From assembly GCF_004010195.1 (NCBI RefSeq), contig NC_057719.1:35919041-35983040 (forward strand): a stretch of 64,000 nucleotides of DNA, in the 5' to 3' direction. A program made the position numbers and the translations under genes. Of this stretch, positions 13,621 to 62,456 are shown piece after piece. Under the pieces are notes generated by a model. That model had not been told where the DNA came from. It was given only the letters and a program-made list of their open reading frames with translations, and ran no database searches. The stretch's first letter is position 1. Each line of letters opens with the position of its first letter. This stretch comes from Chiloscyllium plagiosum (taxonomy: Eukaryota).

Positions 13621-14449
13621 GTTAAAAATCACACAACACCAGCTTATAGTCCAGCAGGTTTAATCGGAAGCACTAGCTTTTGAAGCGCTGCTCCTTCATC
13701 AGGTGGTTGTGGAGTATAAGATCGTAAGACACAGAATTTATAGCAAAAGTTTACAGTGTGATGTAACTAAAATTATACATTGAAAAATATCTTGATTGTT
13801 TGTTAAGTCTCTCATCTGTTAGAATGACCATATTAGTTTTACTTCTTTCATATGTAAATCGCAAAACGTTTTTTGAAAAGTTACATTCTCAAGTGAACTT
13901 TAACAATTGGTGTCAGCCCAGATAATGTATTGAAGGTGTTATCCCCGTGTGCCGTGGTCTGTGCCATAATTGCAGAGTTACATTGTACTTTGCTCAAAAA
14001 CTGCATGAATCCATGTAAGATTCTGCTAATTCATTTTTTAGATTAGAATCAGTCTAAACATTATGGCACAGACCGCAGCACACAGGGGGATAACACCTTC
14101 AATACATTATCTGGGCTGACACCAATTGTTAAAATTTACTTGAGAATGTAACTTTTTTTAAAAATGTTTTGCGATTTACATGTGAAAGAAGTGAAACTAA
14201 CATGGTCATTTCTACAGATGAGAGACTTAACAATCTATCAAGGTATTTTTCAATGTATAATTTCGGTTACATCACACTGTAAACTTTTGCTATAAATTCT
14301 GTGTCTTACAATCGTGTACTCCACAACCACCCGACGAAGGAGCTGTGCTCCGAAAGCTAATGCTTCCAATTAAACCTGTTGTTCTATAACCTGGTATTGC
14401 GTGATTTTTAACTTTGCACACCCCAGTCCAACACTGGCATCTCTAAATC
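13621..14449. mobile_element. Fold-back PLE-derived element (inverted pseudo-LTRs, hammerhead family B)
   Basis: 13621-13970 is an inverted copy of 14060-14412; ~37-nt extension on the right arm only; TSD ttgatctgtg 13607-13616 / 14450-14459. Confidence 0.9.
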
Positions 14450-15239
14450 TTGATCTGTGCTGACATAACAACTACCTGGTCATTCGAAAATCCATGACAT
14501 TGATGTAATGATATAGTTGCATTAGTGCTGCTTTGAGATGTCTGGTGAGGAGCAACCCTTCTCCCCTCCCACCCCAATACAGAGGAGTGTCATTAGTGGG
14601 GGGACAGGATCTATTGGTGCTTGCTTGGTTGAGCCTAGGACTTAGTTCACTGTTGGAGCCTAGCATAAAGAATGAACTTCCAAAGGCACATCTGGCACTC
14701 ACTAGTGGGTTCCAGTGGACATGGACTCCGGAAGAAAGTTTTTCTTTTCCTTTAAATTTCTTCTAATTTCTTTAAATAAATCTCTCCAAAAATTTATGTA
14801 GGGAGTTAACTGTCAGGATCATGGCTCAAGAATTTCAATACTATGTATTATCTTCTGAAAGTTGGACCCACATTTAACTTGTGATAGTTCCTTCATTTAA
14901 GAACTGCAATCCTTCCAGAGTAGTTAGCTTTTGTTTCAAAATTTTGAATGTATTCTCATGATCCTGTTAGACTGGTAACTTTTGAAAACAAATTTGAATA
15001 TCGAAGCTGACATTTCTAAGCTAAAAGGGCCATACAAAAAGAATAAACATTTTATAAACAAAAGGCTTTCATTGACGAAAGACATTGAACAAACATTATT
15101 AAGTTAACACTGTACAGTATCTCAAAACCAAATTACAAATGGAATTCTCACCATTCTGCAGTTAATTTTAATCAAGAATTCCTTTCTCCTTATGTTGCAG
15201 TTTTGAGAAGTTATTCACTTATCCTGCAAATAACCAATG

Positions 15240-15725
15240 TCTGAAGGATTTGATTGTACTGGAGAGGGTGAAGAGGAAATTCATGAGGATATTGCCTGGG
15301 CTGGAGTAGTTTATCCATGAAGAGAGGCTGGATAAGCTTGGGTTGTTTGCTTTTGAACGGGTGACCTGATCAAGGTGTATAAGATTGAGGGACAAGGACA
15401 GGGTGGATAAGAGGCAGTTGTTCCTTTTAGTTGAATGATAAATAACAAGTGACATAAGTTTAAGGTGCAAGGCAGAAAGTTTAGAGGGGATTTGAGGAAA
15501 GTTTCTTTTCACCCAGAGGGTTGTGCCAATCTGGAATGCACTGCCTAAAATGGTAGTTGAGGTGGAAAAGCACACAGTACTTAGATAAGCACATGAAATA
15601 TCATATCATTCAACGCTATGAAGCAAGTGCTGCAAAGTGGGATCCATGCAGATTTGGAGTACTTTTTGTTCGTGTAGCTTGATGGGCTGAACGGGCTTTT
15701 CTCTACTGTATGATTCTACAATTCT
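15240..15725 (+). mobile_element. CR1 LINE 3' fragment
   Basis: ctggagagggtgaagaggaaattc, ttcacccagagggttg, tatgattct tail. Confidence 0.85.
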
Positions 15726-16559
15726 GTCACAACCCCTAGAAAGTTTACTTAGTTCCCTAATTCTCCCTGGTTGAAGGCTTCCTGGGAGATTCTCCCATCA
15801 GCATCTGGCTAGCTTTAAATGTTTTTCAGTTTTCTGGTATCAAAGATGCAGGCATCGAGTCAGTGCATTAGGAATCATTCTCCATGACAGATGCTCTAAC
15901 CCCAGTTCTGGAGCAAGATAATGCAGACCATCCATTTCTCTCAAATGAGAAGCTTAAATGGCAGTGAAGAAAAGGCATCAAAGTCAAACATGTTTGGCCA
16001 CTAGAAGACGTTTTAGAGCTTGGTTTGTTCTTTCCGGATGCAGACAGAGAAGGGACCCGGCACTCATTTTGTGCATTTAGTGAAGGTAAAGATTTTGGAT
16101 CATTACGTACTCTTGAATTCCAGTGACACTGTCCCTGAGACCCTGAAATCTCTCTTAATGGTAATTATCTTTTAACTGAAGAAGGTACAAAGAGTTAATG
16201 TTTTTGACTTGCATCATAAAACCAGCTAAAGATTGCACCAATAGTAATTGCAACCACAATTAGGTGGAGACATTCCTCGCCAGGGAATACAAATAAACCT
16301 TATATTCCCTCAATAGCAAAAGAAAGCAAACAAAATTTCAAAACATTCTGTACCTTCCAAAATGCTCTCAACATCTGAGATACCTTGGATTATGGAGTTA
16401 GAGATATTCACGTGTATTCATCCAACTATAGCTGGATAGTAGAATCGAGTTAGCATTGGATGAAGGAGGTGTTACAGGGGCACATCAAGCAGATCATGAG
16501 GTGAGTTTGGGATGAAACTGTGACAAGTCTTTCTTGGCCTCAGGGAGAGAAACCCTCCA

Positions 16560-20820: not shown

Positions 20821-21254
20821 TTTTAGCTGTATTGCAGTTGAGACACGGGCACTAACAGATCTAAAATCCATTTGTGAAGTCACTGTAAAGGAACAGGAAA
20901 CTGATGCACTAAAGCTAAATTTCACACACTGGGTTCATAATAGCAGGGCAATAATGGGATTACTCACTCTAATCATACAGCATTAGAGTGAGTAAACCAT
21001 TATTATCAGAATTTATTGTTTAAACAATAATGTACGGAAACAACAATTGAAAGAAATAGAAACAATATCAAATTGATGTTCAAATTAAGCATGGCTCATC
21101 TTAATAGTTTAATATTAGACGATGATAGAATTCAAACTTTTGGGCGACAATACATAGGTTCCTTTGCGAGGAATTGCATAGGAGCATGTAGCAGATATAG
21201 GGAAAGGCATATAGGAAGTGTGATATTTTTCCTTTGAACACAGTGAACTGCTTT

Positions 21255-21855
21255 GCAGAACACCTATGTTCTGTTCCCAAACTTGTCTGAGCTTCTAGTT
21301 GCCTGCCACTTCAACACACCACTGGTTCGCTGGCCAACATTTCTGTCCCTTGCTGCTATATGCCAGCAAAGTTCAGCACAAGCTGGAAGAACAGCACCTC
21401 ATTTTCTGCTTGTGGACCCCACAGCCTTCAGGACTCAGTATCAAGTTCAATAATTTTAGGGCCTGAGCATCTTCTCCCATGTCCTTACTACAATATCCAA
21501 TACCAGGCCCTGTCATCACATGGGCTGCTACCACAACCCATTGTCAGTTACAAATGGTTCCCATTAGCAGTTATTGATTCTCTCAGGATGATGTTTATCC
21601 ATTCCTTTGTCTGCATAACTCTTGGAGCCCAGAGAGGGAGAAAAACATCTCCACCTCTTGTTTACTCCTCCCCACTCCCTCTATCCCATTCTCAGTATAT
21701 ATACCAATCTTTTCCTCACTACAGACTGTTCTGAAGAAGGTTCACTGGACCTGAAATGTTAACTTTGCTTTTTCTCTGCAAATGCTGCCAGACCTACTGA
21801 GTTTTTCAGCAATTTCTGTTTCATTTCTGGTTTCCATCATCCACAATTCATTGTT
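21255..21855 (+). mobile_element. PLE 3' end (GIY-YIG C-terminus + pseudo-LTR)
   Basis: VACHFN...KLEEQHLIF..QPSGLSIKFNNF remnants, then hammerhead motif and gctgccagacctactgag tail. Confidence 0.75.
21728..21763 (+). ncRNA. Minimal hammerhead ribozyme motif, family C
   Basis: gtt CTGAAGA a ggttc-actg-gacct GAAA tgtt aac; stem I gtt/aac. Confidence 0.6.
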
Positions 21856-23371
21856 TTTCTTTAATTTTTTTTATTTTGTTTGGCTCCAACTAATTCAGCA
21901 GGGGGATGAGAACCTAAATTGTAGTTCCAGTGTCCAGGAAGTTGAGAGTAGTGAGGTCAGAAATTAGGTTTCAAGGTCACAAGATTTCATCGGCAAGCAG
22001 GAAGATGGTTTGAAGTGTGTCTACTTCAACACCAAGAGCATCCGGAATAAGGTGGTGTACTTGCAGCATGGGTTGGTAGCTGGGACTTCGATGTTGTGGC
22101 CATTTTGGAGACATGGATAGATCAGGGACACGAATGGTCGTTGCAGGTTCCAGGATTTAGATGTTTCAGTAAGAACAGAGAAGATGGTAAAAGAGGGGGA
22201 AATGTGGCATTGTTAGTCAAGGATAATATTACGGTGTCAAAAAAGACATTTGAGGACTCATCTGCTGAGGTAGCATGGGCTGAGATTAGAAACAGGAAAG
22301 GAGAAGTCACCCTGTTGGGAGTTTTCTATAGGCCTCCAAATAGTTCCAGAGATGTATAGGAAAAGATAGCAAAGATAATTCTGGACAGGAGCGAGAGTAA
22401 CAGGCTATTGTTATGGGGGCCTTTAACTGTCCAAATATTGACTGTAAATAAATAAAGTTCGAGTGCTTTAAATGGGTCAGTTTTGTCCGATGTGTGCAGG
22501 ATGGTTTCCTGACACAGTATGTAGACAAGCCAACAAAGGGCAAGGCCACATTGAACTTGGTACTGGCTAATGAAACTGACCTGGTGTTAGATTTGGAGGT
22601 AGGTGAATACTTTGATGAAAGTGACCACAATTCGGTTATGTTTACTTTAGCGATGGAAAGGGATAGTTACATACCACAGCGCAAGACTTATTGCTGTGAG
22701 AAAGGTAATTATGATGCAAATAGGCAAGATTTAGGATGCATAGGATGGAGAAGGAAACTGCAGGGGATGGCCACAATTGAAATGTGGAGCTTATTCAAGG
22801 AACAGTTACTGCGTGTCCTTGATAAGTATGTCCTTGTCAGGCAGGGTGGCAGTGATCAAGCGAGGGAGCCTCTTGTCAAAAGGAAGAAAAAGGCTGATGT
22901 TAGGATGAGAGATGAAGGCTCAGTTAGGTCACTTGAGAGTTACAAGTTAGCTAGGAAAGACCTAAAGAGAGAGCTAAGAAGTGCCAGGAGCGGACATGAG
23001 AAGTCATTGGCAGATAGGATCAAGGAAAACCCTAAAGCTTTCTGTCGGTATATCCGGAATACAAGAATGATGAGATAGATTTGGGCCAATTAAGGATAGT
23101 ATTGGGAAGTTGTGTGTGGAGTCCAAGGAGATAGGGGAAGCGCTAAATGAATATTTTTCATCAGTATTCACACTGGAAAAAGACAATGTTGTTGAGGAGA
23201 ATACTGAGATACAGGCTACTAGATAAGACGGAATTGAGGTTCACAAGGAGAGGTGTTAGCAATTCTGGAATGTGTGAAAATAGATAAGTCCCCTGGGCCA
23301 GATGAAATTTATCCTAGGATTCTCTGGGAAGCCAGGGAGGAGATTGCAGAACCTTTGGCTTTGATTTTTAT

Positions 23372-23470
23372 TCTGGATCAGTGGTGCTGGAAGAGCACAG
23401 CAATTCAGGCAGCATCCGAGGACAGGCAAAATCGACGTTTCGGGCAAAAGCCCTTCATCAGGAATGATGA
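23372..23470 (-). mobile_element. 99-bp PLE pseudo-LTR mini-insertion with hammerhead family A
   Basis: TSD tttgatttttat 23360-23371 / 23471-23482; matches 46660-46756. Confidence 0.9.
23431..23465 (-). ncRNA. Minimal hammerhead ribozyme motif, family A, intact core
   Basis: attc CTGATGA a gggc-tttt-gccc GAAA cgtc gat. Confidence 0.75.
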
Positions 23471-23603
23471 TTTGATTTTTATGTCGCCATTGTCTACAGG
23501 AATAGTGCCAGAAGACTGGAGGATAGCACATGTTTTTCCCTTGTTCAAGAAGGGGAGTAGGGACAACCCTGGAAATTGTAGACCTGTGAGCCTTACTTAG
23601 GTT

Positions 23604-28067: not shown

Positions 28068-28389
28068 AGCGAATTTTGAGAAAATTTGTAGCTCAGGTTG
28101 AGGTTATGGACGTAGGTTTGCTCGCTGAGCTAGAAGGTTTGTTTTCGGACATTTCATCACCATACTAGATAACATCATCAGTGAGCCTCTGAATGAAGCA
28201 CTGGTCGGCATGGCCCGCTTTCTATTTATGTGTTTAGGTTTCCTTGGGTTGCTGACGCCTTTTCCTATGGTGACATCATTTCATGTGGTGATGTCATTTC
28301 TATGGTGGTAAATGGGATCCAAGTCAATGTGTTTGTTGATACAGTTCCAGTTGGAATTCCATGCTTCTACGAATTCTTGTGCGTGTCTC
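28068..28389 (-). mobile_element. PLE (Poseidon-like) 3' end with hammerhead family D
   Basis: Minus-strand 28389-28305 reads RHAQEFVEAWNSNWNCINKHIDLDPIYH, a typical PLE endonuclease C-terminus; hammerhead motif downstream. Confidence 0.75.
28145..28184 (-). ncRNA. Minimal hammerhead ribozyme motif, family D, partly decayed
   Basis: tca CTGATGA t gttatc-tagtat-ggtgat GAAA tgtc cga. Confidence 0.55.
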
Positions 28390-28779
28390 ACAAGTAGTGC
28401 TTTAAATATGTTACCAGCACTTCCAGTGGCATAGCTTTAGCAGATGATTCCTCAATCTCCTCACACTTAATTGGTTATGAATGAATTGCAAACCCTACCA
28501 GTAAAGATTCTTAAAACTGCTATTTTTGATAACATAATGCTAGGGCTGAATTTACTGAAAAGCCTTGAATCCTGTTACCTGGTCTGAATGAAGGAGTCAG
28601 TGCCACTTAGGCAATGGGAAAGCCCACTTCACATGAGTTCAATGCATTCTCCAATCCACAGTCCAATGGCCTACCTCATGCAGAGAAATGTTATAGACAA
28701 TGAAGGAAACAGCAACAGGGTTGCAGAGTGCTTTATTGAATTGGCTGGATCAGTCAGGAAGAATAATCTGAAGCGTTCT

Positions 28780-30158: not shown

Positions 30159-30460
30159 ATTAGATTAGATTACATTACAGTGTGGAAACAGGCCCTTCGG
30201 CCCAACAAGTCCACACCGACCCGCCGAAGCGCAACCCACCCATACCCCTAACCTAACACTATGGGCAATTTAGTATGGCCAATTCACCTGACCTGCACAT
30301 CTTTGGACTGTGGGAGGAAACCGGAGCACCCGGAGGAAACCCACGCAGACATGGGGAGAACGTGCAAACTCCACACAGTCAGTCGCCTGAGGCGGGAATT
30401 GAACCCCAGACTCTGGTGCTGTGAGGCAGCAGTGCTAACTGCTGGGCCACCGTGCCGCCC
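30159..30460 (-). mobile_element. Young HE1 V-SINE
   Basis: CpG-intact, full head, V-domain and (agatt)n tail. Confidence 0.95.
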
Positions 30461-31119
30461 CGTGATCTTTCTATGAACCTGGCCACACTTTGGAAGAATA
30501 TCCACTTGTGACATAAAGAGGTCACATTTCTCTCCTGGAGCCTTTCACAAGATGTTAGAACGTCCCCCGTCTCTGCCCCAACAGTTTTAGAGATCTATCA
30601 TTGATTCTAAGACTGAAGAACTTTGCATAATGAATCATAAAAGATTTATGAGGCAGAAGGAGACCATTCAACTTATCATGCCTGTGAGAACTTTTTCTTT
30701 TTACTTACTTTGTAACCTACTTTTCTCTTTCTTTTCTTTGGGTATTGAGTTGAATTCCACCACCCTTATGATACCACAGTATAAAACCATATTTGAACCA
30801 TAGGCATGTCTGTTCAGCTGTGTGGCAGAGAAGGCAGTGCATTTACGCATCCAGTGTCATCTGTACTTGTAAGACAATAGTTCTTGAACAGTTTAAAGTT
30901 ATGTAACGTTAGTCCCAGATTTGAATGTTTTTCATTATGATTCATTTCAGCCATGGCGTACTGATAGATTTAACCACAGCACTAGCAAAGAAACAGAAAC
31001 AAAAACAAAGATTGTGTCATGCTGGAATGTATTAAAGCTTTCTAAATAAACCAGAAAATAACAGCTGGTCTTTATTGAATCAGACTGCAGTATCTTATAG
31101 TTCATGCAGTGCTATTTAG

Positions 31120-32025
31120 ATTCAGTCAGCAGAAACTGCTGAAAATATTCAGCAGCTCAGGTAGTATCTGTGGAGCGAAAAGTAAAGCTAATAGGATTGA
31201 GTGTCAAGGAATTTTATGCAGGCCTCAGGAGTCTGTTCTGCAGGCTTGAGAGCTGATGAGAAACGCACATTGCTTCCTTCAGGAAGACATACCAGTAACA
31301 AGTGCCTCTCAATACATGGCCACTGTGGATGTTGGTTTTCCCCAGGGCTTAAGTAGCTTGTGAAAGGAAATCTTGCCCCTTCCTAGCTGCCAGCTAGGAG
31401 TCCAACAGCTGTTTTGCTTTCTTGGTAGAGAGGGTATGTAGAGGTGGGGAGGGTATGTAGAACTGCTGAGGGAAATACAGATACTTGGAGGCCTGGAGTT
31501 GAGGAGTCCAGTGTTGGTCGTGGTGATTGGGAGTCTCGGGGAAGAGTGCAGAGTGTTCAGTCTCTGCTATGAGCTGTCCATCCAACTCCCTTGATTCATC
31601 ACCAAGTGAATGAGGTACCAATTAAGGAGATGAGAAGCAGCCAGTACAGGTTTATTTATTGTGAACACTGAATGGGTACAGACCTGGGCACATCAGCAGC
31701 AGGAGTGGGCCCTTAAGTGGGCATTAATTCCCAATTAATTGCCTCAATTGGCAATTGGATGGGAAGGCTGACCACAGGCCTTTGTGTGCTGGATGTAACT
31801 TTGACGAAGGTAGGATGTAGGCAGGGGATGTTACACTGCCCACCTGCATGATTAAATGCCTTCCTCACCTCCAAACACACCAAGTCTTCCTTCAATGTTT
31901 CAACTTGATATGACTTTCAATCAGAACTCTTGATAACAGGTAATCTCAACTTGAGAGGTTAATTCAGGTTTCCTCCACAGATGCTGCCTGACCTGCTGAG
32001 TATTTCCAGCACTTTTTGTATTTAA
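31120..32025. mobile_element. Old inverted PLE pseudo-LTR pair split by a non-autonomous DNA-type element (~31210-31895)
   Basis: 31125-31200 is inverted relative to 31955-32025 (cagcagctcaggtagtatctgtggag / ctccacagatgctgcctgacctgctg); the insert shares a ccttaagtg..attaatt core with 35225-35480. Confidence 0.5.
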
Positions 32026-42900: not shown

Positions 42901-44432
42901 TTCCGCCACCTCCAAACAGACCCCACCACCAGAGATATATTTCCCTCCCCACCCCTATCAGCGTTCCAGAGAGACCACTCCTTCCATGACTCCCTCGCCA
43001 GGTCCAAACCCCCCACCAACCCAATCTCCACCTTCCCCTGCATCCGCAAGAAGTGAAAAACTTGCGCCCACACCTCCCCCCTCACCTCCCTCCAAGGCCC
43101 CAATGGATCCTTCCATATCCGTCGCAAATTCACCTGCACCTTCAAACACATCATTTACTGTATCCGCTGCACCCCACATGGTCTCCTCTACATTGGGGAG
43201 ACAGGCCGCCTACTTGCGGAACGTTTCAGGGAACACCTCTGGGACACCCGCACCAACAAACCCAACCGCCCCGTGGCTGAACACTTTAACTCCCCCTCCC
43301 ACTTGGCCAAGGACGTGCAGGTCCTTGGCCTCCTCTATCGTCAGACCCTGGCCACACGACGCCTGGAGGAAGAGAGCCTCATCTTTTGCCTAGGAACCCT
43401 CCAACCACACGGGATGAATGTAAATTTCTCCAGCTTCCTCATTTCCCCTCTCCCCACCTTATCTCAGTCCTAACCCTGGATTCAGCACTGCCTTCTTGAC
43501 CTGCAATTTTCTTCCCAACCTCTCCGCCCCCACTCCCACTCCCGGCCTTCCCTGACCTGCTGCGCTTTTCCAGCACCACACTTTTCAACTCTGGTCTCCA
43601 GCATCTGCAGTCATCACTTTCTCCTCCTCAATTTCTTTGGTCATCCAACATTCTCTACACATACCAGCCTTGTCTTTTCACCCGAATAGGAATATACTGT
43701 CTCTGGTCTCTTGTTATCTTGTTTTTGAAGACTTCCCATTTTCCACTCATCCCTTTATCTGTAAATATCTGCCCGCAATCAGCTTTTGAAAGCTCTTGCC
43801 TAATACCGTCAAAATTGGCCTTGCTCCAATTTAGAACCTCAACTTTTAGATCCGGTTTGTCCTTTTCCGTCTCTATTTTAAAACTGATAGAATTTTGGTC
43901 GCTAGCCTCAAAGTGCTCCCAAGTGACATCTCAGTCACTTGCCCTGCCTTATTCGCCAAGAGTAGGTCAAGTTTTACACTTCAACTAGAAGGTAAATCCA
44001 TATGATGAATCGGAAAATGTTTTTCTAGACACTTAACAAATTTCTCTCCATCTAAACCTTAACACTATGGCAGTCCCAGTCTATGTTTGGAAACCATAAC
44101 CACCCTATTATTCTTACTGATAACTGAAATCTCCCTACAAATTTGTTTCTCAATTTCCTGCTGAGTATTGGGGTGGGGGGTCTATAATACAATCTCAATA
44201 AGGTCATCATCCCTTTCTTATTTCTCAGTTCTATCCATATAGCTTCCCTGTATGCATTAATATGTATGTATGTATGTATGTATGAATATCCTCCCTAAGT
44301 ACAGTTGTAATGCTATCCCTTATCAAAAATGCTACTCCCCCTACTCTCTTGCCCCCCGCTTTCTATCCTTCCTATAGCATTTGTATCCTGCAATATTAAG
44401 CTGCCAGTCCTGTCCATCCCTGAGCCAAGTCT
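39978..44432 (-). mobile_element. Long CR1 LINE ORF2 pseudogene, split by a PLE insertion
   Basis: RT ORFs 40235-41575 (KSPG, YRPV, SQHGF, FADDTK); APE-side sequence resumes at 43626-44432. Confidence 0.93.
41815..43625 (+). mobile_element. PLE fragment: RT + Cys linker + GIY-YIG endonuclease (Neptune-like), pseudogenised
   Basis: MDIQSLYTSI, GVAMGTRMGPSYA, YIDD, FLD, YYKPTD; PCxRKK*KTC linker; IIYCIRC..LYIGETGR..ERFREH; stop at 43471-43473; pseudo-LTR tail with the hammerhead segment deleted. Confidence 0.93.
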
Positions 44433-46600: not shown

Positions 46601-46622
46601 ACTAAAACACTGCTCCAGGCTA

Positions 46623-47223
46623 AAAAGGTAAAAACAATGACTACAGATGCTGGAAACCAGATTCTGGATCAGTGGTGCTGGAAGAGCACAGCAGTTCAGG
46701 CAGCATCCGAGGAAAGGCAAAATCGACGTTTCGGGCAAAAGCCCTTCATCAGGAATAAAGGCAGAGANNNNNNNNNNNNNNNNNNNNNNNNNNNNNNNNN
46801 NNNNNNNNNNNNNNNNNNNNNNNNNNNNNNNNNNNNNNNNNNNNNNNNNNNNNNNNNNNNNNNNNNNNNNNNNNNNNNNNNNNNNNNNNNNNNNNNNNNN
46901 NNNNNNNNNNNNNNNNNNNNNNNNNNNNNNNNNNNNNNNNNNNNNNNNNNNNNNNNNNNNNNNNNNNNNNNNNNNNNNNNNNNNNNNNNNNNNNNNNNNN
47001 NNNNNNNNNNNNNNNNNNNNNNNNNNNNNNNNNNNNNNNNNNNNNNNNNNNNNNNNNNNNNNNNNNNNNNNNNNNNNNNNNNNNNNNNNNNNNNNNNNNN
47101 NNNNNNNNNNNNNNNNNNNNNNNNNNNNNTGTAGGGCTTTTGCCCGAAACGTCGATTTTGCCTGTCCTCGGATGCTGCCTGAATTGCTGTGCTCTTCCAG
47201 CACCACTGATCCAGAATCTGGTT
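46623..47223. mobile_element. Fold-back PLE-derived element (family A) spanning an assembly gap
   Basis: 46650-46745 is inverted relative to 47133-47228; TSD tccaggcta 46614-46622 / 47224-47232. Confidence 0.88.
46721..46756 (-). ncRNA. Minimal hammerhead ribozyme motif, family A, intact core
   Basis: attc CTGATGA a gggc-tttt-gccc GAAA cgtc gatt. Confidence 0.75.
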
Positions 47224-47232
47224 TCCAGGCTA

Positions 47233-48561: not shown

Positions 48562-49635
48562 TCAGACAATCAGACATTGGGCAGAATTAGGCCACTCAGC
48601 CCGTTGAGGCAGACGTGGGTACTGCAGATGCTGGAGAATAGAGTCAAGATTAGAGTGGCGCTAGAAAAACACAGCAGGTTCAGGCAGCATCCAAAGAGCC
48701 GGAAAATCGACATTTTGGGCAAAGTCCCTTCATCAGGAAAGCCTGATGAAGGGCTTTTGCCCGAAACATCGATTTTTCTGCTCCTTGGATGTTGCCTGAT
48801 CTGCTGTGCTTTTCCTGCACCATTCTAATCTTCACTCAACCCATTGAGTCAGCTCTGGCATTTGATCATGGCTGATAACGTTTCTCAACCCCATTCTCCT
48901 GCCTCTTCCCCTAACCCTTGATCCCCTTACCAATCAAGAACCTGTCTATTTCTGTCTTAAATTCACTCAGTAACTTAGCCTCCACAGGCCTCTGTAGCAA
49001 TAGGTTCAATAGATTAACTACACTATGGCTAAAGAAATTCTTCCTCCTCTCCATTCGAAAGGATCATCCCTTGATTCTGAGGCTGTGCCCTTGGGTCCTA
49101 GTCTCTTCTACTCATGGAAACATCTTCTCCAATCTACTCTATCCATGCCACTCAATATTCTGTAAGTTTCAATCAGATCCCCCCTCCCGCTCCCTCTAAA
49201 CTCCATCGAGTACAGAATCCACTCCTCCTATGACAAGCCTTTCATCCCTGGCATCATTCTTGTAAATGCCCTCTGGTCCCCTCCAATACCAGCACATCCT
49301 TCCTTAGAATATAGGCCCCAAACTATTCAATATTACAAATGAGGTCTGACCAGAGCCTTTTGCAGCTTCAGCAGGAAATCTCTTGTATTCTAGTCCTCTT
49401 CGAATGAATGCTTTTTTTGCAGTTGCACTTCTAACTGTCAACTGAACCTGCATGTTAACCTTGAGAATCCTGAACTAGAACTCCTAAGTCCTTTTGTGCT
49501 TCAGATTTCTGAATCCTTTCCCTTATTATAAAATAGTCTACATCTCTGTTATTCCAACAAAAGTGCATAACCTCACACTTTCCCACATCGTATTCCACCT
49601 ACCACTTCTTTGCCCATTCTTCTACCCTGTCTGAA
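48562..49635 (-). mobile_element. CR1 3' fragment carrying a palindromic PLE insertion in its 3' UTR
   Basis: gaattaggcc..atcatggctgat 3' UTR, aagaaattcttcctc, cctcacactttcccac. Confidence 0.85.
48613..48832. mobile_element. 220-bp palindromic PLE-derived element with two head-to-head hammerheads (family A)
   Basis: Arms 48646-48737 / 48742-48832, centre cccttcatcagg-aaag-cctgatgaaggg; imperfect ~20-bp TSD 48593-48612 / 48833-48852. Confidence 0.88.
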
Positions 49636-49904: not shown

Positions 49905-50265
49905 CAGGGGTTTATAGAAACTTATAAAATTCTAACAGAACTAGACAGGGTAAACATAGGAAGAATGTTCCTGATGACCGGGGTGGGGGGGGGGGGGGGT
50001 CCAGAACCATTTAGGACTAAGATGAGGAGCAGTTTCTTCACACACAGTGGTGAGCCTGTGGAGTTCTCAGTCACAGGAAGTGGTTGAGTCCAAATCATTG
50101 ATGTTTTCAAATGGAGTTAGATAAAGTTCTTTGGAATAAAGAGATCAATGGTATGGGGATAAAGAGGGAACAGGCTACTGAGTTGGATAATCATCCATGA
50201 TCACATCATAGTGGGGCTGGCTCAAAGGACTGAATGGCCTACCGCTGCTCCTATTTTCTATGTTT
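49905..50265 (+). mobile_element. CR1 3' end
   Basis: atagaaacttataaaattctaacag, ttcttcacacacag, cctattttctatgt tail. Confidence 0.82.
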
Positions 50266-50314
50266 TTATGTAACATTAAGGTCCAAACATCTTTTGGCCA
50301 CTTCAACTCATGTG

Positions 50315-53513: not shown

Positions 53514-53793
53514 CTTCCTTAAGCTCAAGCACTTAACAGCCTTACAGGATATTTTGGAGCTTCTGTTTTACTAACGTTTAAGGCACTCATGATCATAAAC
53601 CTTTATCTCAGAATGCATTCCATGGTTAGATCTTTAATTTGAAGAATTGAAATTCTTTCAAAAAGAAATAGAGTTGGCATGAGAGGGGTGCTTTGTTTTC
53701 CTTATAGTTTATACTTCAACACTATACTTTCAAGTCCTCCTTTTATAGTCAACACTAGTCAAGTATAGTCAACACTATACTTCAACAGTATAG

Positions 53794-54129
53794 TGGGTGG
53801 CACGGTAGCACAGTGGTTAGCACTGCTGCCTCACAGCGCCAGAGACCTGGGTTCAATTCCCACCTCAGGCGACTGACTGTGTGGAGTTTGCACATCCTCC
53901 CTGTGTCTGCGTGGGTGTGCTCCGGTTTCCTCCCACAGTCCAAAGATGTGCAGGTCAGGTGAATTGGCCATGCTAAATTGCCTGTAGTGTTAGGGGCAGG
54001 GGTATATGTAGGGGAATGGGTCTGGGGGTGGGTGCACTTCGGCGGGTCGGTGTGGACTTGTTGGGCCGAAGGGCCTGTTTTCACATTGTAAGTAATGTAA
54101 TCTAATCTAAGTAATCTAATCTAATCTAA
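53794..54129 (+). mobile_element. HE1 V-SINE
   Basis: gggtggcacggtagcacagtggttagc head; (taatc)n tail. Confidence 0.95.
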
Positions 54130-54813
54130 AACACTAAGCTTTACCAAAGAATATAATATAGCAGTAAATAAGAATAACAACAAAGAATATGTTGTTAGAA
54201 GTGATACAGAAAAACGTGGAACTGATAACTAACTGAAAGGTGAATAGGTGGTGAAAACAATAGAATGTTTTATTTGTTTCTAGGATGTCAGCATCATTTA
54301 CCAGCAGGCCTTATTTGATCTTTGAGAAGGTGGTTGTGAGTCACCTCTGTCTGTACAATGGAATATCATGCCATTTCAGAGGTCAGATAATGATCAATTA
54401 TTATCCAGCTCTGAGAATACTGGACTAGCCAAATCTTTCTTATAATCTAGCTTCAGGGAACAGAATTTTTTTAAAGTATCAAGTATGTAGAAGAGGCAAG
54501 GGTAAGAAAATAAGTATCAGTGTTACAGAGTTGAAATGAAATATGAGAAAACAGATCTAATTGTACAAAACTGAACAAGACAAACACAAATATAATGTTT
54601 AAATAGGTGTATGGAACAGATAGTTATCCTAAATTATATATACAGATGTACAACTGGTTTAACCATCAGGTTTAACATTAGGTAATTCTGAGTTAACAGG
54701 CAAACTGTGGTCAAGTGCTCCACAGATAGCATTATAAATGGGTAATGCAGTCAAGACAGATCCTACCCAGATGTTAGCGACATTGTGAGTCACCAAATTT
54801 TGTTAAAACACTT

Positions 54814-54952
54814 ACACAAAAACAGAAATTTCTTGAGAAACTCAGCAGTTCTGGCAGCATCTGCGGAGAGAAATATTTTAGGTCCAGTGACCCTTCTTCA
54901 GAATTCCTGTTCCAGTTGTTTCAGATCTTTAGCATCCTAAGTTATTTGTTTT
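54814..54952. mobile_element. Decayed PLE pseudo-LTR, family C
   Basis: ggtccagtgacccttcttcagaa 54881-54903 (minus-strand hammerhead, GAAA lost). Confidence 0.65.
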
Positions 54953-56394: not shown

Positions 56395-56928
56395 GATTCT
56401 GGAAACATTGCTGCAAATTAGAAAACTGCAAATGTATCATCTGGGTTCAAGAAAGGAAGGAGACATTAAGCATGAAACCATAGGACAGCTAACCCATCAC
56501 GAGTCATTGGGAAAATGCTAGAATTATTATTAAACAAGTAGTAGCAGTAAATGTAGAAAATCATCATATAATCAGGCAGAGTAAACATGGTTCTGTGAAA
56601 GATAAATTGACAAATTTGTTAGAGTGCTTTGAGGATATGACATGCAGGGTGAATTATGGGGGCATAATTTGCTTCATTTGGATTCCAAATGTGCATCATT
56701 TGGATTTCTAAAACACACTTGATAAGGTGTCACTTTAAAGGTTACCAAGATAAGAGTCCATGATGGTGGGCCTAATCTATTAGCATAGATTAGAGACTGT
56801 TTAACTAACAGGAAATAAAGAGTTGGGATAAATGGGTCGTTATAAGTTTGGAAAATAGTAATTAGTGAAATTCTGCAGTGCTTTGGTCTCAACTCTTTAT
56901 GATCTCCTTTAATGACTTGAATGAAGTT
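56395..56928 (+). mobile_element. Degenerate CR1 RT fragment (further piece at 58204-58455)
   Basis: WKTANV-like, KHGSVK, DF*NTLDKV remnants. Confidence 0.7.
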
Positions 56929-57017
56929 ATGATTTGGAGATGCTGGTGTTGGACTGGGGTGTACAAATTTAAAAATCACACAGCACCAGGTTATAGTCCA
57001 ACAGGTTTAATTGGAAG

Positions 57018-57052
57018 CACTAGCTTTCGGAGCGCCGCTCCTTCATCAGGTG
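57018..57052 (-). ncRNA. Minimal hammerhead ribozyme motif, family B, intact
   Basis: cac CTGATGA a ggagc-ggc-gctcc GAAA gcta gtg. Confidence 0.78.
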
Positions 57053-57091
57053 GTTGTGGAGGACACAATTGTAAGGCACAGAATTTATAGC

Positions 57092-57837
57092 TGAAAATAT
57101 TTTGCTGGAAAAGCGCAGCAGGTCAGGCAGCATTCAAGAAGCAGGAGAATCAACGTTTCGGGCATGAGCCTTTCTTCAGGAATGAGGAAAGTGTGTCCAG
57201 CAGGCTAAGATAAAAGGTAGGGAGGAGGGACTTGGGGGAGGGGCGTTGGAAATGCGATAGGTGGAAGGAGGTTAAGGTGAGGGTGATAGGCCGGNNNNNN
57301 NNNNNNNNNNNNNNNNNNNNNNNNNNNNNNNNNNNNNNNNNNNNNNNNNNNNNNNNNNNNNNNNNNNNNNNNNNNNNNNNNNNNNNNNNNNNNNNNNNNN
57401 NNNNNNNNNNNNNNNNNNNNNNNNNNNNNNNNNNNNNNNNNNNNNNNNNNNNNNNNNNNNNNNNNNNNNNNNNNNNNNNNNNNNNNNNNNNNNNNNNNNN
57501 NNNNNNNNNNNNNNNNNNNNNNNNNNNNNNNNNNNNNNNNNNNNNNNNNNNNNNNNNNNNNNNNNNNNNNNNNNNNNNNNNNNNNNNNNNNNNNNNNNNN
57601 NNNNNNNNNNNNNNNNNNNNNNNNNNNNNNNNNNNNNNNNNNNNNNNNNNNNNNNNNNNNNNNNNNNNNNNNNNNNNNNNNNNNNNNNNNNNNNNNNNNN
57701 NNNNNNNNNNNNNNNNNNNNNNNNNNNNNNNNNNNNNNNNNGGAGGTGGCGGAAATGACGGAGGATGATACGATGTATATGGAGGTTGGTGGGGTGGTAG
57801 GTGAGGACCAGTGGGGTTCTGTCCTGGCAAAAGTTAT
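57092..57837 (-). mobile_element. Nested Neptune-like PLE 3' fragment with hammerhead (family A variant, 57148-57183)
   Basis: TSD agaatttatagc 57080-57091 / 57838-57849; 57742-57826 matches ORF sequence at 42828-42912; attc CTGAAGA a aggc-tcat-gccc GAAA cgtt gatt. Confidence 0.88.
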
Positions 57838-59027
57838 AGAATTTATAGCAAAAGTTTACAGTGTGATGTAACTGAAATTATACATTGAAAAATACCTTGA
57901 TTGTCTGTTGAGTCTTTCATCTGTTCGAATACCATGATAGTTTCACTACTTTCATATGTAAATCACAAAACTATTTTTTAGAAGTTGCATTCTCAGGTTA
58001 ACTGTAACAATTGGTGTCAGCCAGATAATATGTTGAAGGTGTTAGCCCCCTGTGTTCCCTGTCTGTGCCATAATGTTTAGAATGATTCTAATCTAAAAGG
58101 TGAGTTAATAGAGTCTTACATGGATTCATGCAGTTTCTGAGCAAAGTACAATGTAACTCTGCAAGAACAAATTCACCCACAAACATATATGTATATGTAT
58201 ATGTTGGAAGCAGTTCATCCATAGTTTTATGAGATGGATTCCTGGGATGAGGGAGTTTTCAAATAAGAAAATGTTGATCAAGTTTAGCCTATACTCATCG
58301 GATTTTAGAAGAACGACAGGTGACCTTATTGGACAATATCAGATTCTGAGGCTGTTCAACAGGGTAGATGATGAAATAATGTTTTGACTTATCAGGGAAT
58401 CAAGGACTAGGGCGCACAGTTTCAAAATGAGGGATTGCCATTTAAAATGGAGATTTACTGTTAGAGAATGAAATATGGGATGTAAACTGTCAGGAGGAGA
58501 ACACTGTTAGGGAGTGAGGGAGGGAGTGAATACTGTCAGGTGAATTTGCGGTGGTGAACACTCGGGGGTGGGGGGGAATGAGAAGATAAGACTAAACCAA
58601 GAAATAATGGCTAGAGGATAATTAATAATTGTAGATATCATTTTGAAAATATATTTTACTGCAAATCACAACTGGGAATAGCTCAGTTAACACATGCTGT
58701 GGCTCAATTAAATTCCTTACTTCCCGGAATGCAGCACCGAGTGCCATGAAGCAGGCATGGTTTGTCTTCCTGCCAACTATCCTGCAGGTACAAAGGGAAC
58801 AATTGGATTTCAGCTAGGCTTCATTTTTTTCTGAAGGTTTGGAAGGTTGTGTCAGAAATGCTGAGCTTGGCTGTAGAGTAACAAGACCTGCTGAAATTTG
58901 TGCAGGGTTTTGATACAAAATTCAGAATATTCCGTATAGTTTTAGTCTCTGTACCCATGGAGTTGAAGTAGAATGTGAATGCAGATTCACAAAATTGATT
59001 GATGGGAGAACAACTTTCTTCTATATG

Positions 59028-59274
59028 GTTAAAAATCACACAACACCAGGTTATAGTCCAACGGGTTTAATTGGAAGCACACTAGCTTTCGGAGCGACGC
59101 TCCTTCATCAGGTGATAGTCCTTCATCAGGTGACTATCATCAGGACTATCACCTGATGAAGGAGCGTCGCTCCGAAAGCTAGTGTGCTTCCAATTAAACC
59201 TGTTGGACTATAACCTGGTGTTGTGTGATTTTTAACTTTGTACACCCTAGTCCAACACCGGCATCTCCGAATCA
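59028..59274. mobile_element. 247-bp palindromic PLE-derived element with two intact hammerheads (family B)
   Basis: Arms 59028-59119 / 59145-59236 near-perfect; 38-nt right extension; TSD ttcttctatatg 59016-59027 / 59275-59286. Confidence 0.93.
59150..59184 (+). ncRNA. Minimal hammerhead ribozyme motif, family B, intact (mirror copy 59080-59114, minus strand)
   Basis: cac CTGATGA a ggagc-gtc-gctcc GAAA gcta gtg. Confidence 0.8.
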
Positions 59275-59319
59275 TTCTTCTATATGCTATTCTATTTCAA
59301 CAAAATACACTTGATTTCA

Positions 59320-59700: not shown

Positions 59701-60718
59701 TTTAAAAGGGTTTTAGAGTGATGGTTTAGATTTTTACATAAGAAGCTTGAATTGGAAGATGGGATAATCCTGCCACTGTCCTGATATTATCTCCACCTTG
59801 AGAATTCCAGCAGGTAGGAACTTTTAGGGGTCTGCCCCTAAGGGGCCTGGAGGTGCACCTACTGGAGGTGGGCTGAGTCCAGTTTGGGCAGGTTGAAATA
59901 CTGATTTCATTCCCAGCTAATCTTCTATGCAGCGTTTCCAAGGCAATCAGCAACTCACCTAAGTACAGTTGAATCTTCTGGCTGCCTTAAATCTGTCCTC
60001 ACCCTACCCGCTGCCGCTGTTATGTGAAACTCCCCTACTCTCACCCTGTCATCCATTTTATGAATAATTCTCGCAAGTACTATTATAACAGTTGGAAGAC
60101 AATGAATAGCCTATAACTTGTTCTGAGTAAACAAATAAACTCTTCAAAGCACATTATTCTGTATTCAAATCCCTCAACCTTTCTTGCTTCTCACACAGTC
60201 ACGAATCTGCCTATTTCCAATTCTTTACTTCTGTTGTCCAGGCTAGTGGATTGTTTGTATTTGCTTACCCCATTGTTGCTAGTGCACCAACAGCAATAAC
60301 TTCTCCGTCTGTCCTGGCATTGTTACTTCTGAGATCTCACAAGGATCTTGCTAACCTCCCACAACTCTTCTCTGCCTCACTGGGGTAATTCATTGGAAAT
60401 CAAGTCCTGCTATTCTTGGCTTTGTAACATTTGGCAAGCACTTTCAGGAGGTGGAATTGGTCCTTAATTGGGTGTATGGGATGTTGAATTCCTCAAGGCA
60501 GATGCGTTGTGTGAGATATCTTTTAAAAAGGAAATGCTATTGCACTTCAACACACATATGGTTTTGACAGAAGGTAAATCCAATTTCAGTGGCAAGGAGA
60601 GCTCGATGACTGGGAATCTCCCTACAGCTACAGCCTTCATCCACTATCACAGATAATGACATCACACAACCATCTTCCCATGGATTGCTATTGAGGACTT
60701 GTTTGGACTCTGCTTTGT

Positions 60719-61007
60719 AAAGGTAAAAGCAATGACTGCAGATGCTGGAAACTAGAGTTTAGATTAGAATGATGCTGGAAAAGCACAGCAGTTCAGGCAG
60801 CATCCAAGGAGCAGGAAAATCGACATTTTGGACAAAAGCCCTTCATCAGGAATACAGACAGAGTGCCTGAAGGGTGGAGAGATAAATGAGAGGGGGGTGG
60901 GGGTGGGGAGAAAGTCTTCCTCCAGGCGTCGGATGGTGAGGGAGCGGCAGTGAAGGAGGCCCAGGACCTCCATGTCCTCGGCTGAGTGGGAGAGGGAGTT
61001 GAAATGT
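60719..61007 (-). mobile_element. Internally deleted PLE 3' end (family A), hammerhead decayed
   Basis: EHFNSLSHSAEDMEVLGLLHCRSLTIRRLEE joined to pseudo-LTR; TSD tctgctttgt 60709-60718 / 61008-61017. Confidence 0.88.
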
Positions 61008-62261
61008 TCTGCTTTGTCTGGTTCCTCCCCTGACATTACTATCATGGCTGTCCCTGCCAGAACTTGAGAACTCCTGATGGCTTTGCTCTGGGATCAATGG
61101 AACATGCAAGCCTCTCCAATAGAGCTGGATGACAATCCAAGGAGAGGATTTGAACATACACTGTATCTGAAAAATAATTAGCGTGACTAAGTCAAAATGA
61201 AAGTATTTGAATATTAATTTAAATGCACTTATTTTATATTGTAAGCATTGTTGGTGGAATTGTAGATTGAAATATGAAAGGAATAGATGGTAAACTGTTG
61301 CTGATAATACCAAATTTGTGCGAAAGATTAATCTGATTTCATTAAGCTAGATTTGGTAAGTTTATGTAAAGAAACAAATGAGCAAGTCTGATTTAGAGTT
61401 TAGCAATATAGATGATTGGAGATAAAGGGAGGGTGAAAGGATGCATTTTTGTTTTACTGCCTGGGTGTTAATCCAATGGAGCAAACAATCTGTCCTTTGT
61501 AGGATCTGCCTGGTTTTTCTTATTTCAATTGATTCAAAATAAAGTTGAGTAATCCCCTCTGACATATCATCTTTAAAGTAATGAAGTCAAAATCTATCCA
61601 CAGCTCTTTTACTGGTGTATGGGAGAGTAGGCAGATTCCTGTCCGTTCTTTAATTGTTGATCCTCCTTAAAGATTTTCATTAATCTCCAGATGTAGTATT
61701 TTGCAGAGATTTCTGAATGAGGTCAACCAAGAGATTTTGGCAGTTCAAACAAGGTTTTAGAATTCATGAGTAGTGTGAAAATCAGCCTGAATAGAATCAA
61801 GTCATTTATTTTTAAGCAAAAATCTTTACAGTAGCTTCATCAAATGTATTAAGTTTAATCATTTTTGTTATTGCATGAAGACAACTGAGATTTTGTTGCA
61901 GGCTGTCATGAAGGCTGCAAACTTGGGTTTGAATACTGTTTGAGACTAAAACAGAGTGAGTGATATCTGCGCAACTTCTACTTACTTTGGGTGTGTTCTA
62001 TGCTTAATACCAATGTGGTGAGGGTGGTACCTTGGTGTCATAAATGTGCATTGTAGGTCTGCAAAGTAGGCAGATTTTGAACTCAGTCACTGTGTAATAC
62101 TGATTTGACATACTACCATTCTGGATATCATATCTCCAGTAAACCATTGGTCCCGACAACCATTTAACATGCACACACCTTGCAAGCATTCAGCAGCAAG
62201 AAGGCTTCCTTCACCAATATCATGTAAATGGATTATCAATGTCAAGAAAAGATCTAACGAA

Positions 62262-62456
62262 GAAGAACAGAAATTGTTGGAAAATCTCAGCAGATCTGGC
62301 ACGTTTGTGGGGAGTAATCAGAGTTAATGTTTTGGGTCCAGTGACCCTTCTTCAGCGCTAGAGAAGGTGCATTGCTCTTTTCGACCCTACTGAAATTTTC
62401 CTGCAGTTACTGTTTTTGTTTTTGATTTCCAGCATCCGTAGTTCATTTGGTTTTCT
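62262..62456. mobile_element. Decayed fold-back PLE pseudo-LTR, family C
   Basis: gttaatgttttgggtccagtgacccttcttcag 62323-62355; degenerate inverted right arm. Confidence 0.65.

Follow-up and report, generated by a model that had tools for sequence, protein, structure and literature searches.

The analysed window, 64,000 nt of Chiloscyllium plagiosum (GCF_004010195.1, NC_057719.1 35,919,041-35,983,040, forward strand), holds 13 insertions with hammerhead motifs of the form CUGANGA-N-stem II-GAAA-NNUH, besides a broken Penelope-like element (PLE) and several old fragments (Table 1). Judged from their sequence, the insertions are the pLTR (pseudo-LTR) ends of PLEs carrying minimal hammerheads (min-HHRs).

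Table 1. Insertions, fragments and poly(A) signal in the window
Position	Feature	Strand	Motif, extent and remnants	TSD
8408-8487	Old family C pLTR fragment	-	no recognisable hammerhead
13617-14449	Family B head-to-head inverted pair	both	minus arm 13619-13970, motif 13674-13702, no tail; plus arm 13970-14449, motif 14331-14359, 35-nt tail	10 bp, 13607-13616 / 14450-14459
21240-21860	Family C long copy	+	5' end approximate; GIY-YIG C-terminal remnant in 21299-21463 (48% to 43060-43416 frame, E 3e-7), 3' UTR, motif 21731-21760, tail	not found
23372-23470	Family A short copy	-	begins ~6 nt upstream of core; unbroken motif 23434-23461, no tail	12 bp, 23360-23371 / 23471-23482
28068-28390	Family D copy	-	Penelope/Poseidon-type ORF C-terminus (68% to P0038, an RT + GIY-YIG protein), 3' UTR, motif 28148-28181	not found
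31128-31190	Old family C pLTR fragment	-	no recognisable hammerhead
31949-32023	Old family C pLTR fragment	+	no recognisable hammerhead
34399-34498	Family B short copy	+	begins 13 nt upstream of core; unbroken motif 34411-34439, AATAAA, no tail	not found
41815-43625	Broken 5'-truncated PLE	+	RT and GIY-YIG remnants (GIY-YIG E 2.4e-5; 80% to P0001); family A pLTR and tail at end, hammerhead deleted
46623-47223	Family A inverted pair spanning N gap	both	minus arm, unbroken motif 46725-46752, tail; plus arm from 47131, no tail	9 bp, 46614-46622 / 47224-47232
48609-48832	Family A short inverted pair	both	minus motif 48709-48736, tail, begins ~4 nt upstream of core; plus motif 48743-48770, no tail, begins ~1 nt upstream	16 bp, 2 mismatches
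54812-54904	Family C short decayed copy	-	begins ~2 nt upstream of core; motif 54872-54901	not found
56929-58190	Family B long copy, split by 57092-57837	-	~400 nt upstream sequence, unbroken motif 57021-57049, tail to 56929
56991-57011	Family B poly(A) signal	-	ATTAAA/AATAAA 57011-57006, GU-rich stretch downstream
57092-57837	Family A long copy inside family B copy	-	ORF remnant 57743-57827 (93% to 42828-42913), motif 57152-57179, N gap, no tail	12 bp, 57080-57091 / 57838-57849
59028-59274	Family B short inverted pair	both	both motifs unbroken, each arm begins 3 nt upstream of core; 59083-59111 minus, no tail; 59153-59181 plus, tail	12 bp, 59016-59027 / 59275-59286
60719-61007	Family A copy	-	GIY-YIG C-terminal remnant with internal deletion (55%, E 9e-13), decayed motif 60822-60849, tail	10 bp, 60709-60718 / 61008-61017
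62258-62455	Family C inverted pair	both	minus arm 62258-62356, decayed motif 62326-62355; plus arm 62381-62455, tail, begins 3' of predicted cut site	not found

Hammerhead motifs and their families

The initial annotation counted about 15 motif copies, and all 16 of the positions that it listed match the motif within a few bases of where it had placed them. The descriptor scan for type I hammerheads that it proposed, run with a strict minimal descriptor, returned 9 matches in the window, whereas 200 block-wise dinucleotide shuffles gave 0.045 on average and 1 at most; an Rfam search gave no hammerhead match at E<=5. The core boxes, the bulged base before stem II and stem II itself are recognisable in 16/16 motifs, six of which are fully intact and ten decayed.

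Four families can be told apart by their stem II pairs, as had been claimed: gggc/gccc in A (6 copies), ggagc/gctcc in B (6), gggtc/gaccc in C (3) and gttatc/ggtgat in D (1). However, A and C are related in DNA (nhmmer cross-matches, E down to 2e-11), and A itself splits into several subfamilies that are 75-98% alike. Helix I has 2-3 bp across the motifs; the expected cac/gtg pairing is unbroken in 5/6 family B copies, whereas gtt/aac holds in just one of the three family C copies and family A has a stem I of 2 bp only. Similarly, the palindrome that makes up the loopless helix III (ACGT or AGCT, positions 15.2-16.2), attributed to the whole set, is unbroken in 9/16 motifs but broken in seven, six of which show TG or CA, which fits CpG decay. 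The predicted cut triplets are GUC (A and D), CUA (B) and GUU (C), the same assignment as had been reached before for A and B.

Insertion anatomy and linkage to PLE reading frames

Families A, C and D directly adjoin GIY-YIG ORF remnants, and for these families only is an ORF with RT and C-terminal GIY-YIG contiguous with the repeat. On the family A side, the protein P0002 combines RVT_1 with GIY-YIG, and a Cys-rich motif precedes GIY-YIG both in P0002 and near 43030-43070 in the broken family A PLE, an element absent from the earlier list; this motif is absent from P0038, the family D relative. A Zn-finger-like motif between RT and EN characterises the Neptune clade, to which families A and C may belong. 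For family B, neither a long ORF in the ~400 nt of upstream sequence nor a match in a metagenome pattern scan was found, and because no family B ORF was found, its autonomous partner is assumed.

It had been proposed that most copies lack any ORF and are flanked by clean TSDs of 9-20 bp. The former holds by count, as 8 of the 12 assessable insertions are without ORF sequence, but the other four hold PLE ORF remnants and two of the eight retain 270-400 nt of upstream PLE sequence. TSDs of 9-16 bp are present at 7/13 insertions (10, 12, 9, 16 with 2 mismatches, 12, 12 and 10 bp), but none was detected at the remaining six, which include all those of families C and D, and none has 20 bp; the score of the 9-bp case was matched by 3/142 random boundary pairs. 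An adjacent inverted 5'-truncated copy occurs in 5/13 insertions, and all four inverted pairs with two measurable arms carry a tail on one arm only (35, 36, 38 and 38 nt). An inverted copy with a tail at one side is the published insertion signature of autonomous PLEs (PMC8557442, PMC3846280, PMC2377424, PMC4209133), and this anatomy, together with the ORF linkage of A, C and D, supports the earlier view that the hammerheads are minimal, of type I and PLE-derived, and that PLE machinery inserted them.

Boundaries of the copies and polyadenylation of family B RNA

Eight of 15 arms have their start away from the cut site, 0-13 nt before the core (p ~6e-6 against an exponential; p ~8e-5 for 6/12 insertions), with offsets judged by eye from alignments and motif-bearing arms alone counted. 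Eight arm starts fall within 14 nt, four in the ~50-60 nt further 3', and seven over the next 650 nt; four family C arms begin further 3', and arms beyond the cluster extend 160-650 nt into 3' UTR or ORF. At 23.4k, 48.7k and 59k, TSDs fix the boundaries of the short copies without reliance on homology. The initial annotation had named randomly distributed 5' breakpoints as what would speak against it; such a distribution was not seen, and the clustering bears out its suggestion that the short copies go beyond random truncation. In sequence, the nearest relatives of several short copies are long or ORF-bearing ones (A23434 98%, B59153 98%, A48706 89%; 15 arms compared).

Just upstream of the family B core, depth drops by a factor of 11-14 in contigs and of 3-4 in RNA reads; the subfamily divergence at 57061, the insertion nested at 57091 and over-counting of contigs all exaggerate this drop. 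For the family A subfamily compared, by contrast, contig depth upstream of the core shows no drop in two DNA runs (1.1x and 1.2x), but one of 3.9x in a third (~2.9x in reads). Among the 15 family B joints listed, 13 are strand switches and 10 have one side at 57049-57061; two of these 10 have the other side at 57020, the first base past the predicted cut (p ~0.01, post hoc), so that cleaved RNA may template some arms.

The loose 3' ends of family B are sharp, at 56929/56930 and 56969, 40 nt apart, in three DNA runs (1180/552/1247, 639/294/803 and 1123/533/1322 contigs ending at 56929/56930/56969), and the flanks beyond them are heterogeneous and AT-rich. Poly(A) is added at 56994 and 56991 in 1,667 of 5,819 RNA reads (747 + 920), 27-30 nt past the predicted cut and upstream of both genomic 3' ends; the hexamer is present in 6/6 family B copies, and the template at the site is not A-rich. 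A used poly(A) site preceding both 3' ends is a new observation for family B RNA. The loci behind these reads could be host transcripts whose end is a family B copy, and a family with thousands of copies and a working poly(A) signal could also terminate host transcripts. No pile-up of RNA starts or ends was seen in one poly(A) single-cell library, a material poor at showing such ends, and an RNA circle rejoined at the cut would restore the original sequence.

Formation of the short copies

Taken together, we consider it probable (about 0.8) that the insertions are pLTR end modules of at least four PLE families, likely incomplete copies made by the elements' own RT-endonuclease, and not a separate non-autonomous class. 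Copies finish at either of two fixed 3' sites that lie 35-40 nt from each other, their targets are AT-rich, and in all four inverted pairs with measurable arms each site is used by one arm. Target-strand nicking and internal RT priming are established in vitro for another PLE (PMC11167929), and by analogy the protein would nick both strands here and prime RT internally at the two sites, one cDNA per strand then yielding TSD-flanked head-to-head pairs. About half of the arms start in the interval just upstream of the core, and the rest reach further. Since a polyadenylated 3' end would be unable to template insertions whose 3' sites lie beyond it, the family B template would be the upstream pLTR copy or read-through RNA; the poly(A) geometry favours internal priming on the upstream pLTR and suggests that short copies are run-off cDNAs, whose synthesis would have ended, by run-off or stalling, at a discrete boundary of the RNA just 5' of the hammerhead. 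An RNA 5' end is the leading candidate for this boundary, at somewhat under even odds, a structural or protein block is somewhat less probable, and another origin, such as a splice boundary, is unlikely. In D. virilis, Penelope transcription starts ~120 nt upstream of the hammerhead (computed from PMC2377424 and PMC4209133), which counts against an RNA start at the boundary. The hammerheads are predicted to cut only as dimers or with protein help, as established for others, and most copies would be decaying passengers.

The initial annotation had instead suggested a retrozyme- or SINE-like non-autonomous class mobilised by PLE machinery; such a class would have its own masters, ribozyme processing and mobilisation in trans by PLE proteins. 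The high share of ORF-less insertions and the clustered 5' ends speak for it, as do thousands of family B insertion junctions from a family seen without ORF whose RNA is polyadenylated; moreover, non-autonomous PLE derivatives exist, namely non-LTR retrozymes (10.64898/2026.07.22.740005) and non-autonomous Chlamys (PMC8557442), and pLTR sequence is enough for trans mobilisation (PMC3846280). However, we regard it as very improbable. None of 18 TRF rows covers any motif (longest period 25) and no head-to-tail hammerhead arrays were found; spaced Pol III A and B boxes are lacking in 6/6 short insertions but present in 3/3 control SINEs; no A-rich or simple-repeat 3' tail extends beyond target sequence at 7/7 arm ends inspected; and short copies are not grouped apart from long ones. 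Their boundaries, spread over 0-13 nt before the core, mark neither a single base nor the cut, and the poly(A) end precedes both insertion 3' ends. The hammerheads of inverted pairs lie on opposite strands, in a hairpin 84-87% paired, so that each transcript holds a single sense motif and no cis dimer.

Plain random 5' truncation, the clustering being an ascertainment artefact of counting motif-bearing copies compounded by upstream subfamily divergence, is unlikely: strong 5' truncation is typical of PLEs (PMC8557442), the four family C arms begin further 3', family A depth is level across the core in two runs and the 57061 divergence inflates the family B drop, but the uneven distribution of arm starts, the TSD-fixed boundaries and the concentration of listed joints at 57049-57061 argue against it. 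A template processed by the ribozyme is more doubtful; here copy boundaries would be set by the cut that the hammerhead makes in PLE RNA, which it might also religate. Four families of distinct sequence have all kept the core, stem II and palindrome, two joints fall on the base with which the predicted 3' product begins, and protein-assisted cleavage is described for an anole element (PMC11167929); however, 16/16 motif-bearing arms pass through the predicted cut site, the poly(A) library shows no place of mass RNA starts or stops, a religated circle would give no boundary peak upstream of the core, and for the anole element ribozyme mutants left insertion unchanged in vitro and no RNA-seq ends lay at the cut (PMC11167929). 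We also see little chance that the boundary is a splice acceptor at which copying stops or resolves, like the D. virilis Penelope intron, whose end PMC4209133 places at the start of helix I on its 5' side. C21731 and D28148 have a pyrimidine-rich YAG, at -7 and -8 respectively, but family B, whose boundary has the strongest support, has none in the 40 nt upstream, the only YAGs of family A are at -18 and -26, and the short copies share no common upstream exon, nor do the 15 joints listed include such a skip.

Compatible with the observations, though speculative and unlikely, is an LTR-like mode of PLE copying without a tRNA primer, with the hammerhead as a terminal, R-like repeat of ~60-70 nt. 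RNA would begin just upstream of the 5' pLTR hammerhead and receive its poly(A) shortly after that of the 3' pLTR; target-primed synthesis at the tail sites near the RNA 5' end would run off after 85-135 nt, and this strong-stop-like cDNA would have to jump to the 3' repeat, with failed jumps as the source of the short copies in their thousands. Pairing of the tail with the poly(A) region in a stem of 9-10 bp would mask the site solely in the upstream pLTR, and a dimer acting on both strands would produce the inverted pairs. If true, this would supply a mechanism for pLTR regeneration and give the hammerhead dimer the role of bringing two RNA ends together. Both pLTR regeneration and the role of the weak hammerhead are open questions in PLE biology (PMC2377424, PMC11167929), and a 5' boundary at the hammerhead edge with a poly(A) site before both RT starts constrains which RNA is the template.

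As a catalogue the set is ordinary, since dispersed minimal hammerheads of truncated PLEs are already described in PMC4209133. The metazoan min-HHRs there share CUGANGA, the unpaired base before stem II, G at 10.1, GAAA and the palindromic 15.2-16.2 without loop 3, and likewise form several sequence families per genome, mostly as single dispersed copies ascribed to truncated PLEs; schistosome motifs have a helix I of 4-5 bp against 2-3 bp here, and the passages compared name no shark. Animal non-LTR retrozymes (PMC7229834; 10.64898/2026.07.22.740005), also reported from one chondrichthyan genome, resemble the short copies in being non-coding dispersed monomers with type I hammerheads and PLE pLTR kinship. 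However, their arrays run head to tail and hold two or more hammerheads (of the canonical type in PMC7229834), and their RNA is circular, whereas here arrays are absent, motifs are minimal, pairs are inverted, and helix I contrasts with a canonical one of 6 bp with loop contacts.

The closest likeness is to EN+ PLEs (Neptune, Penelope/Poseidon; PMC8557442, PMC3846280, PMC2377424), which share the RT and C-terminal GIY-YIG ORF upstream of the pLTR (here in A, C and D), strong 5' truncation, the adjoining inverted 5'-truncated copy and a 30-40 nt tail at a single end; their TSDs of ~9-10 bp have a counterpart at 7/13 insertions here. By contrast, numerous units in the window consist of the pLTR alone and favour a particular 5' boundary, and a used poly(A) site lies between the family B hammerhead and the two 3' ends; we found neither feature in the papers compared, and the main text of PMC11167929 has no mention of 'polyA' or 'polyadenyl'. 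The anole Poseidon element PAc (PMC11167929), for which a multi-copy read-through RNA is proposed, likewise has two internal start sites bounding the tail, AT-rich targets and use of both strands, its start sites lying ~85-92 nt past the cut (computed) compared with 90-103 nt for the long ends here.

Hammerhead motifs and their association with Penelope-like elements

Scanning with a relaxed pattern and tabulating by coordinate recovered all 16 hammerhead motifs listed in the initial annotation, which are spread over 13 insertions. Their four types of stem II also agree with its description, distinguishing families A (gggc/gccc), B (ggagc/gctcc), C (gggtc/gaccc), and D (gttatc/ggtgat). A chance origin was ruled out, since a strict descriptor (CUGANGA, an optional base, a stem of at least 4 pairs, GAAA, and NNUH) gave 9 matches in the window, whereas 200 shuffles averaged 0.045 and never exceeded 1. 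Core, stem II, and palindrome are all intact in only 6 of the 16 motifs: the helix III palindrome, described earlier as a general feature, is kept in nine motifs and lost in the other seven, six of which carry TG or CA, the pattern of CpG decay. Stem I is 3 bp long in family B and in one C copy, and 2 bp in family A. In Rfam no hammerhead model matched at E ≤ 5, monomer folding did not recover the three-helix hammerhead, as expected of minimal motifs, and whole-module folding gave weak z-scores (−1.0 to −1.9). An Rfam mir-39 match at 59091–59173 (44 bits, gathering 62) was rejected as merely the fold-back of an inverted pair. Elsewhere in the window, short near-perfect hairpins at 2812–2861 and 20945–21009, with sub-threshold Rfam microRNA matches, are unrelated to the hammerhead families.

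The motifs lie in Penelope-like element (PLE) pseudo-LTRs (pLTRs). A broken PLE at 41815–43625, in which GIY-YIG was matched at E 2.4e-5 and RVT_1 weakly at E 0.029, is terminated by a family A pLTR from which the hammerhead has been deleted; its endonuclease frame shares 80% and 71% identity with two proteins named from bamboo shark, in one of which both RVT_1 and GIY-YIG were scored. The 5′ end of this element is formed by an inverted piece of 56 nt (41815–41870, from 42293–42348), and it also contains a 49-nt internal duplicate (42432–42480 of 43099–43147). Among the other family A copies, 57092–57837 includes a piece with 93% identity to 42828–42913, and 60719–61007 retains the endonuclease C-terminus (55%, E 9e-13). 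A homologous C-terminus lies upstream of the family C motif at 21731 (48%, E 3e-7). For the family D fragment, a word-based homolog search found nothing, an atlas search gave weak unnamed clusters only, and comparison with a Neptune-type protein was negative, while a full phmmer search yielded nine matches at E ≤ 0.001, two with GIY-YIG and one of these also with RVT_1; identity to this last protein is 68%. A weak match to the D module at 50186–50314 (E 0.003) is either an old D fragment or chance. No ORF was found for family B within the window, where its upstream sequence extends ~400 nt, and a pattern scan of metagenome contigs for this family gave 0 matches.

At the DNA level the pLTRs of A and C match one another, and a Cys-rich motif preceding the GIY-YIG domain suggests that both may belong to the Neptune clade, whereas its absence in the relative of D points to Penelope/Poseidon, as these clades are described in PMC8557442. 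Leaving aside the 46.7k insertion, which is interrupted by a gap, ORF remnants were found in 4 of the 12 assessable insertions and long upstream sequence in two, the remaining six being pLTR-only. Three PLE ends (23372–23470, 48609–48832, and 57092–57837) are nested in other repeats; one is a family A copy located within a copy of family B. The other two sit in what we take to be LINE-like remnants.

Tests of a separate non-autonomous class

The initial annotation proposed that the short copies form a retrozyme- or SINE-like non-autonomous class with target-site duplications (TSDs). A TSD search over 17 boundary sets found seven, all within the 13 motif-bearing insertions. The TSDs thus hold for 7 of the 13 (10, 12, 9, 16 with two mismatches, 12, 12, and 10 bp) and none was found for the remainder; among 142 random boundary pairs three scored as high as the 9-bp case without any exceeding it, and wider searches in seven insertions gave nothing above background.

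Several results argue against the class itself. Tandem retrozyme arrays were rejected, as no array in the window spans a motif. Heads of the tRNA type were likewise rejected, since spaced A and B boxes occur in 0 of 6 short insertions vs. 3 of 3 control SINEs of tRNA type (30160–30462, 53786–54130, and 63065–63376), some of which have TAATC-type repeat tails and which resemble the shark HE1 SINE. No A-rich tail follows any of seven arm ends, an arm being one copy within an insertion. Short copies resemble long ones in the module that they share: the short A23434 and B59153 (family letter and motif start) are 98% like the long A46725 and B57021, respectively, and the short A48706 is closest to the ORF-bearing A60822 (89%). 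In inverted pairs, i.e., two arms arranged head to head, the hammerheads lie on opposite strands within hairpins that are 84–87% paired, and such pairs are therefore incapable of the cis dimerization on which minimal motifs depend (PMC4209133). The insertions thus do not show what defines a SINE or a non-LTR retrozyme, the latter as given in PMC7229834 and 10.64898/2026.07.22.740005. The chondrichthyan retrozyme families listed with the second of these sources may overlap families A–D.

Boundaries of the insertions

Randomly distributed 5′ breakpoints, which the initial annotation held would speak against its proposal, are not what we observed. Among 15 motif-bearing arms with a definable end (read by eye from alignments, excluding the gapped 46.7k arm), the sequence retained upstream of the core is just 0–13 nt in 8 and ~160–650 nt in 7, a clustering that departs from an exponential at p ~6e-6 for arms and p ~8e-5 for 6 of 12 insertions. 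Four further C arms without a hammerhead begin further 3′ and are outside this test. Pyrimidine-rich YAG sequences resembling splice acceptors lie 7–8 nt upstream of the core in long C and D copies (21724 and 28189).

Contigs from three DNA runs, together with raw reads from a single RNA run, were placed on 56900–57294. For family B, depth drops between 57040–57053 and 57068–57081 by 12.7-, 10.8-, and 14.0-fold in contigs and 3.3–4.3-fold in RNA reads. These values are inflated, as this copy diverges at 57061 and has a nested insertion at 57091, and as read length and over-counted contigs add to the drop. The family A subfamily examined gave ratios of 1.1, 1.2, and 3.9 (contigs) and ~2.9 (reads). 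One side falls at 57049–57061 in 10 of the 15 joints listed (216 more lie beyond the listing). For two of the strand-switch joints listed, each present in the three DNA runs, the other side is 57020, the base that directly follows the predicted CUA cut (p ~0.01, post hoc); they may represent arms copied from cleaved RNA. Units defined by the cut site were rejected. The preferred boundary sits upstream of the core, a place to which cleavage by the ribozyme would not bring it.

The 3′ ends fall into two classes. After the cut site, single copies extend 57–64 nt (short) or 92–103 nt (long), with the sole D copy at 80 nt, and in all four inverted pairs with both arms measurable the arms differ by 35–38 nt. 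Family B loose ends at 56929/56930/56969 number at least 1180/552/1247, at least 639/294/803, and at least 1123/533/1322 contigs in the three DNA runs (six loose ends listed per run, 1,824 others), and have heterogeneous AT-rich flanks. A one-sided extra 3′ stretch is the PLE "tail" of PMC8557442 and PMC3846280, and has been explained by two internal start sites of reverse transcription, with nicking and extension on both strands at AT-rich targets (PMC11167929).

Opposite-strand joints of 56929/56930 to 56969, from long to short 3′ end (X1 has 8 such contigs, X11 has 18), look as if tails had been joined to each other or an element had inserted into its own end. The junction of the 59k pair (59112–59149) is made up of duplicates of small pieces from the 5′ ends of its own arms, and both arms have the same extra 5 bases upstream, which suggests several rounds of fold-back or of template jumping at this boundary.

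Family B polyadenylation and a proposed model of template use

A poly(A) site is used in family B. In the RNA run, a single-cell poly(A) library of which ~2% was read, poly(T) precedes 56991 and 56994 in 920 and 747 of 5,819 placed reads, whose strand makes the RNA B-sense. ATTAAA or AATAAA occurs at 57011–57006 and at the equivalent place in 6 of 6 B copies, the AATAAA form accounting for about half of contig depth and of forward-mate reads. The template is not A-rich at the site and is followed by a GU-rich stretch, a layout (57011–56991) that fits a poly(A) signal. The predicted cut lies 27 and 30 nt before the sites, which in turn precede the two genomic 3′ ends by 22–65 nt, so that a polyadenylated B end is without both start sites. 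These reads may come from host transcripts; among the runs listed in a search with the unique flank, none was an RNA run. No A-tailed genomic copies at this site were among the six top loose ends listed per DNA run, nor did the RNA run show a position where many molecules begin or end, ends that this library type shows poorly.

In 5 of 7 tail-bearing arms the tail forms a 9–10 bp stem with the stretch 16–29 nt after the predicted cut, at a position common to A and B and with different sequence. Stems as good arose in 40–69 of 2000 shuffles for A, and two B arms gave counts of 2 and 9 in 2000, copies of one family not being independent. In B the stem covers bases up to the poly(A) sites; it is absent in decayed B14331 and in C21731.

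Tail stems in family A and B arms
Feature	Position	Family
Tail stem	56929–57003	B
Tail stem	46623–46710	A
Tail stem	60719–60807	A

Taken together, we propose that short copies would be cDNAs that were primed at the tail sites and stopped at a discrete boundary immediately 5′ of the hammerhead, and that long copies might arise on tandem read-through RNA or by jumping across the hammerhead repeat that is shared. In PMC11167929, internal two-site priming on both strands was obtained in vitro, and hammerhead cleavage in vitro was protein-assisted and dispensable; PMC2377424 locates a promoter within the pLTR. In D. virilis the transcription start lies ~120 nt upstream of the ribozyme motif, and helix I is where an intron ends (PMC2377424 and PMC4209133), and therefore the boundary need not be a transcription start. 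The literature searched, with most subscription papers and several early PLE papers outside it, gave no account of a poly(A) site that lies in the pLTR, upstream of where reverse transcription starts, and no strong-stop model for PLEs. The population itself is a known kind of element, ordinary as a class, and what it offers is a specific, testable lead on how PLEs use their templates.
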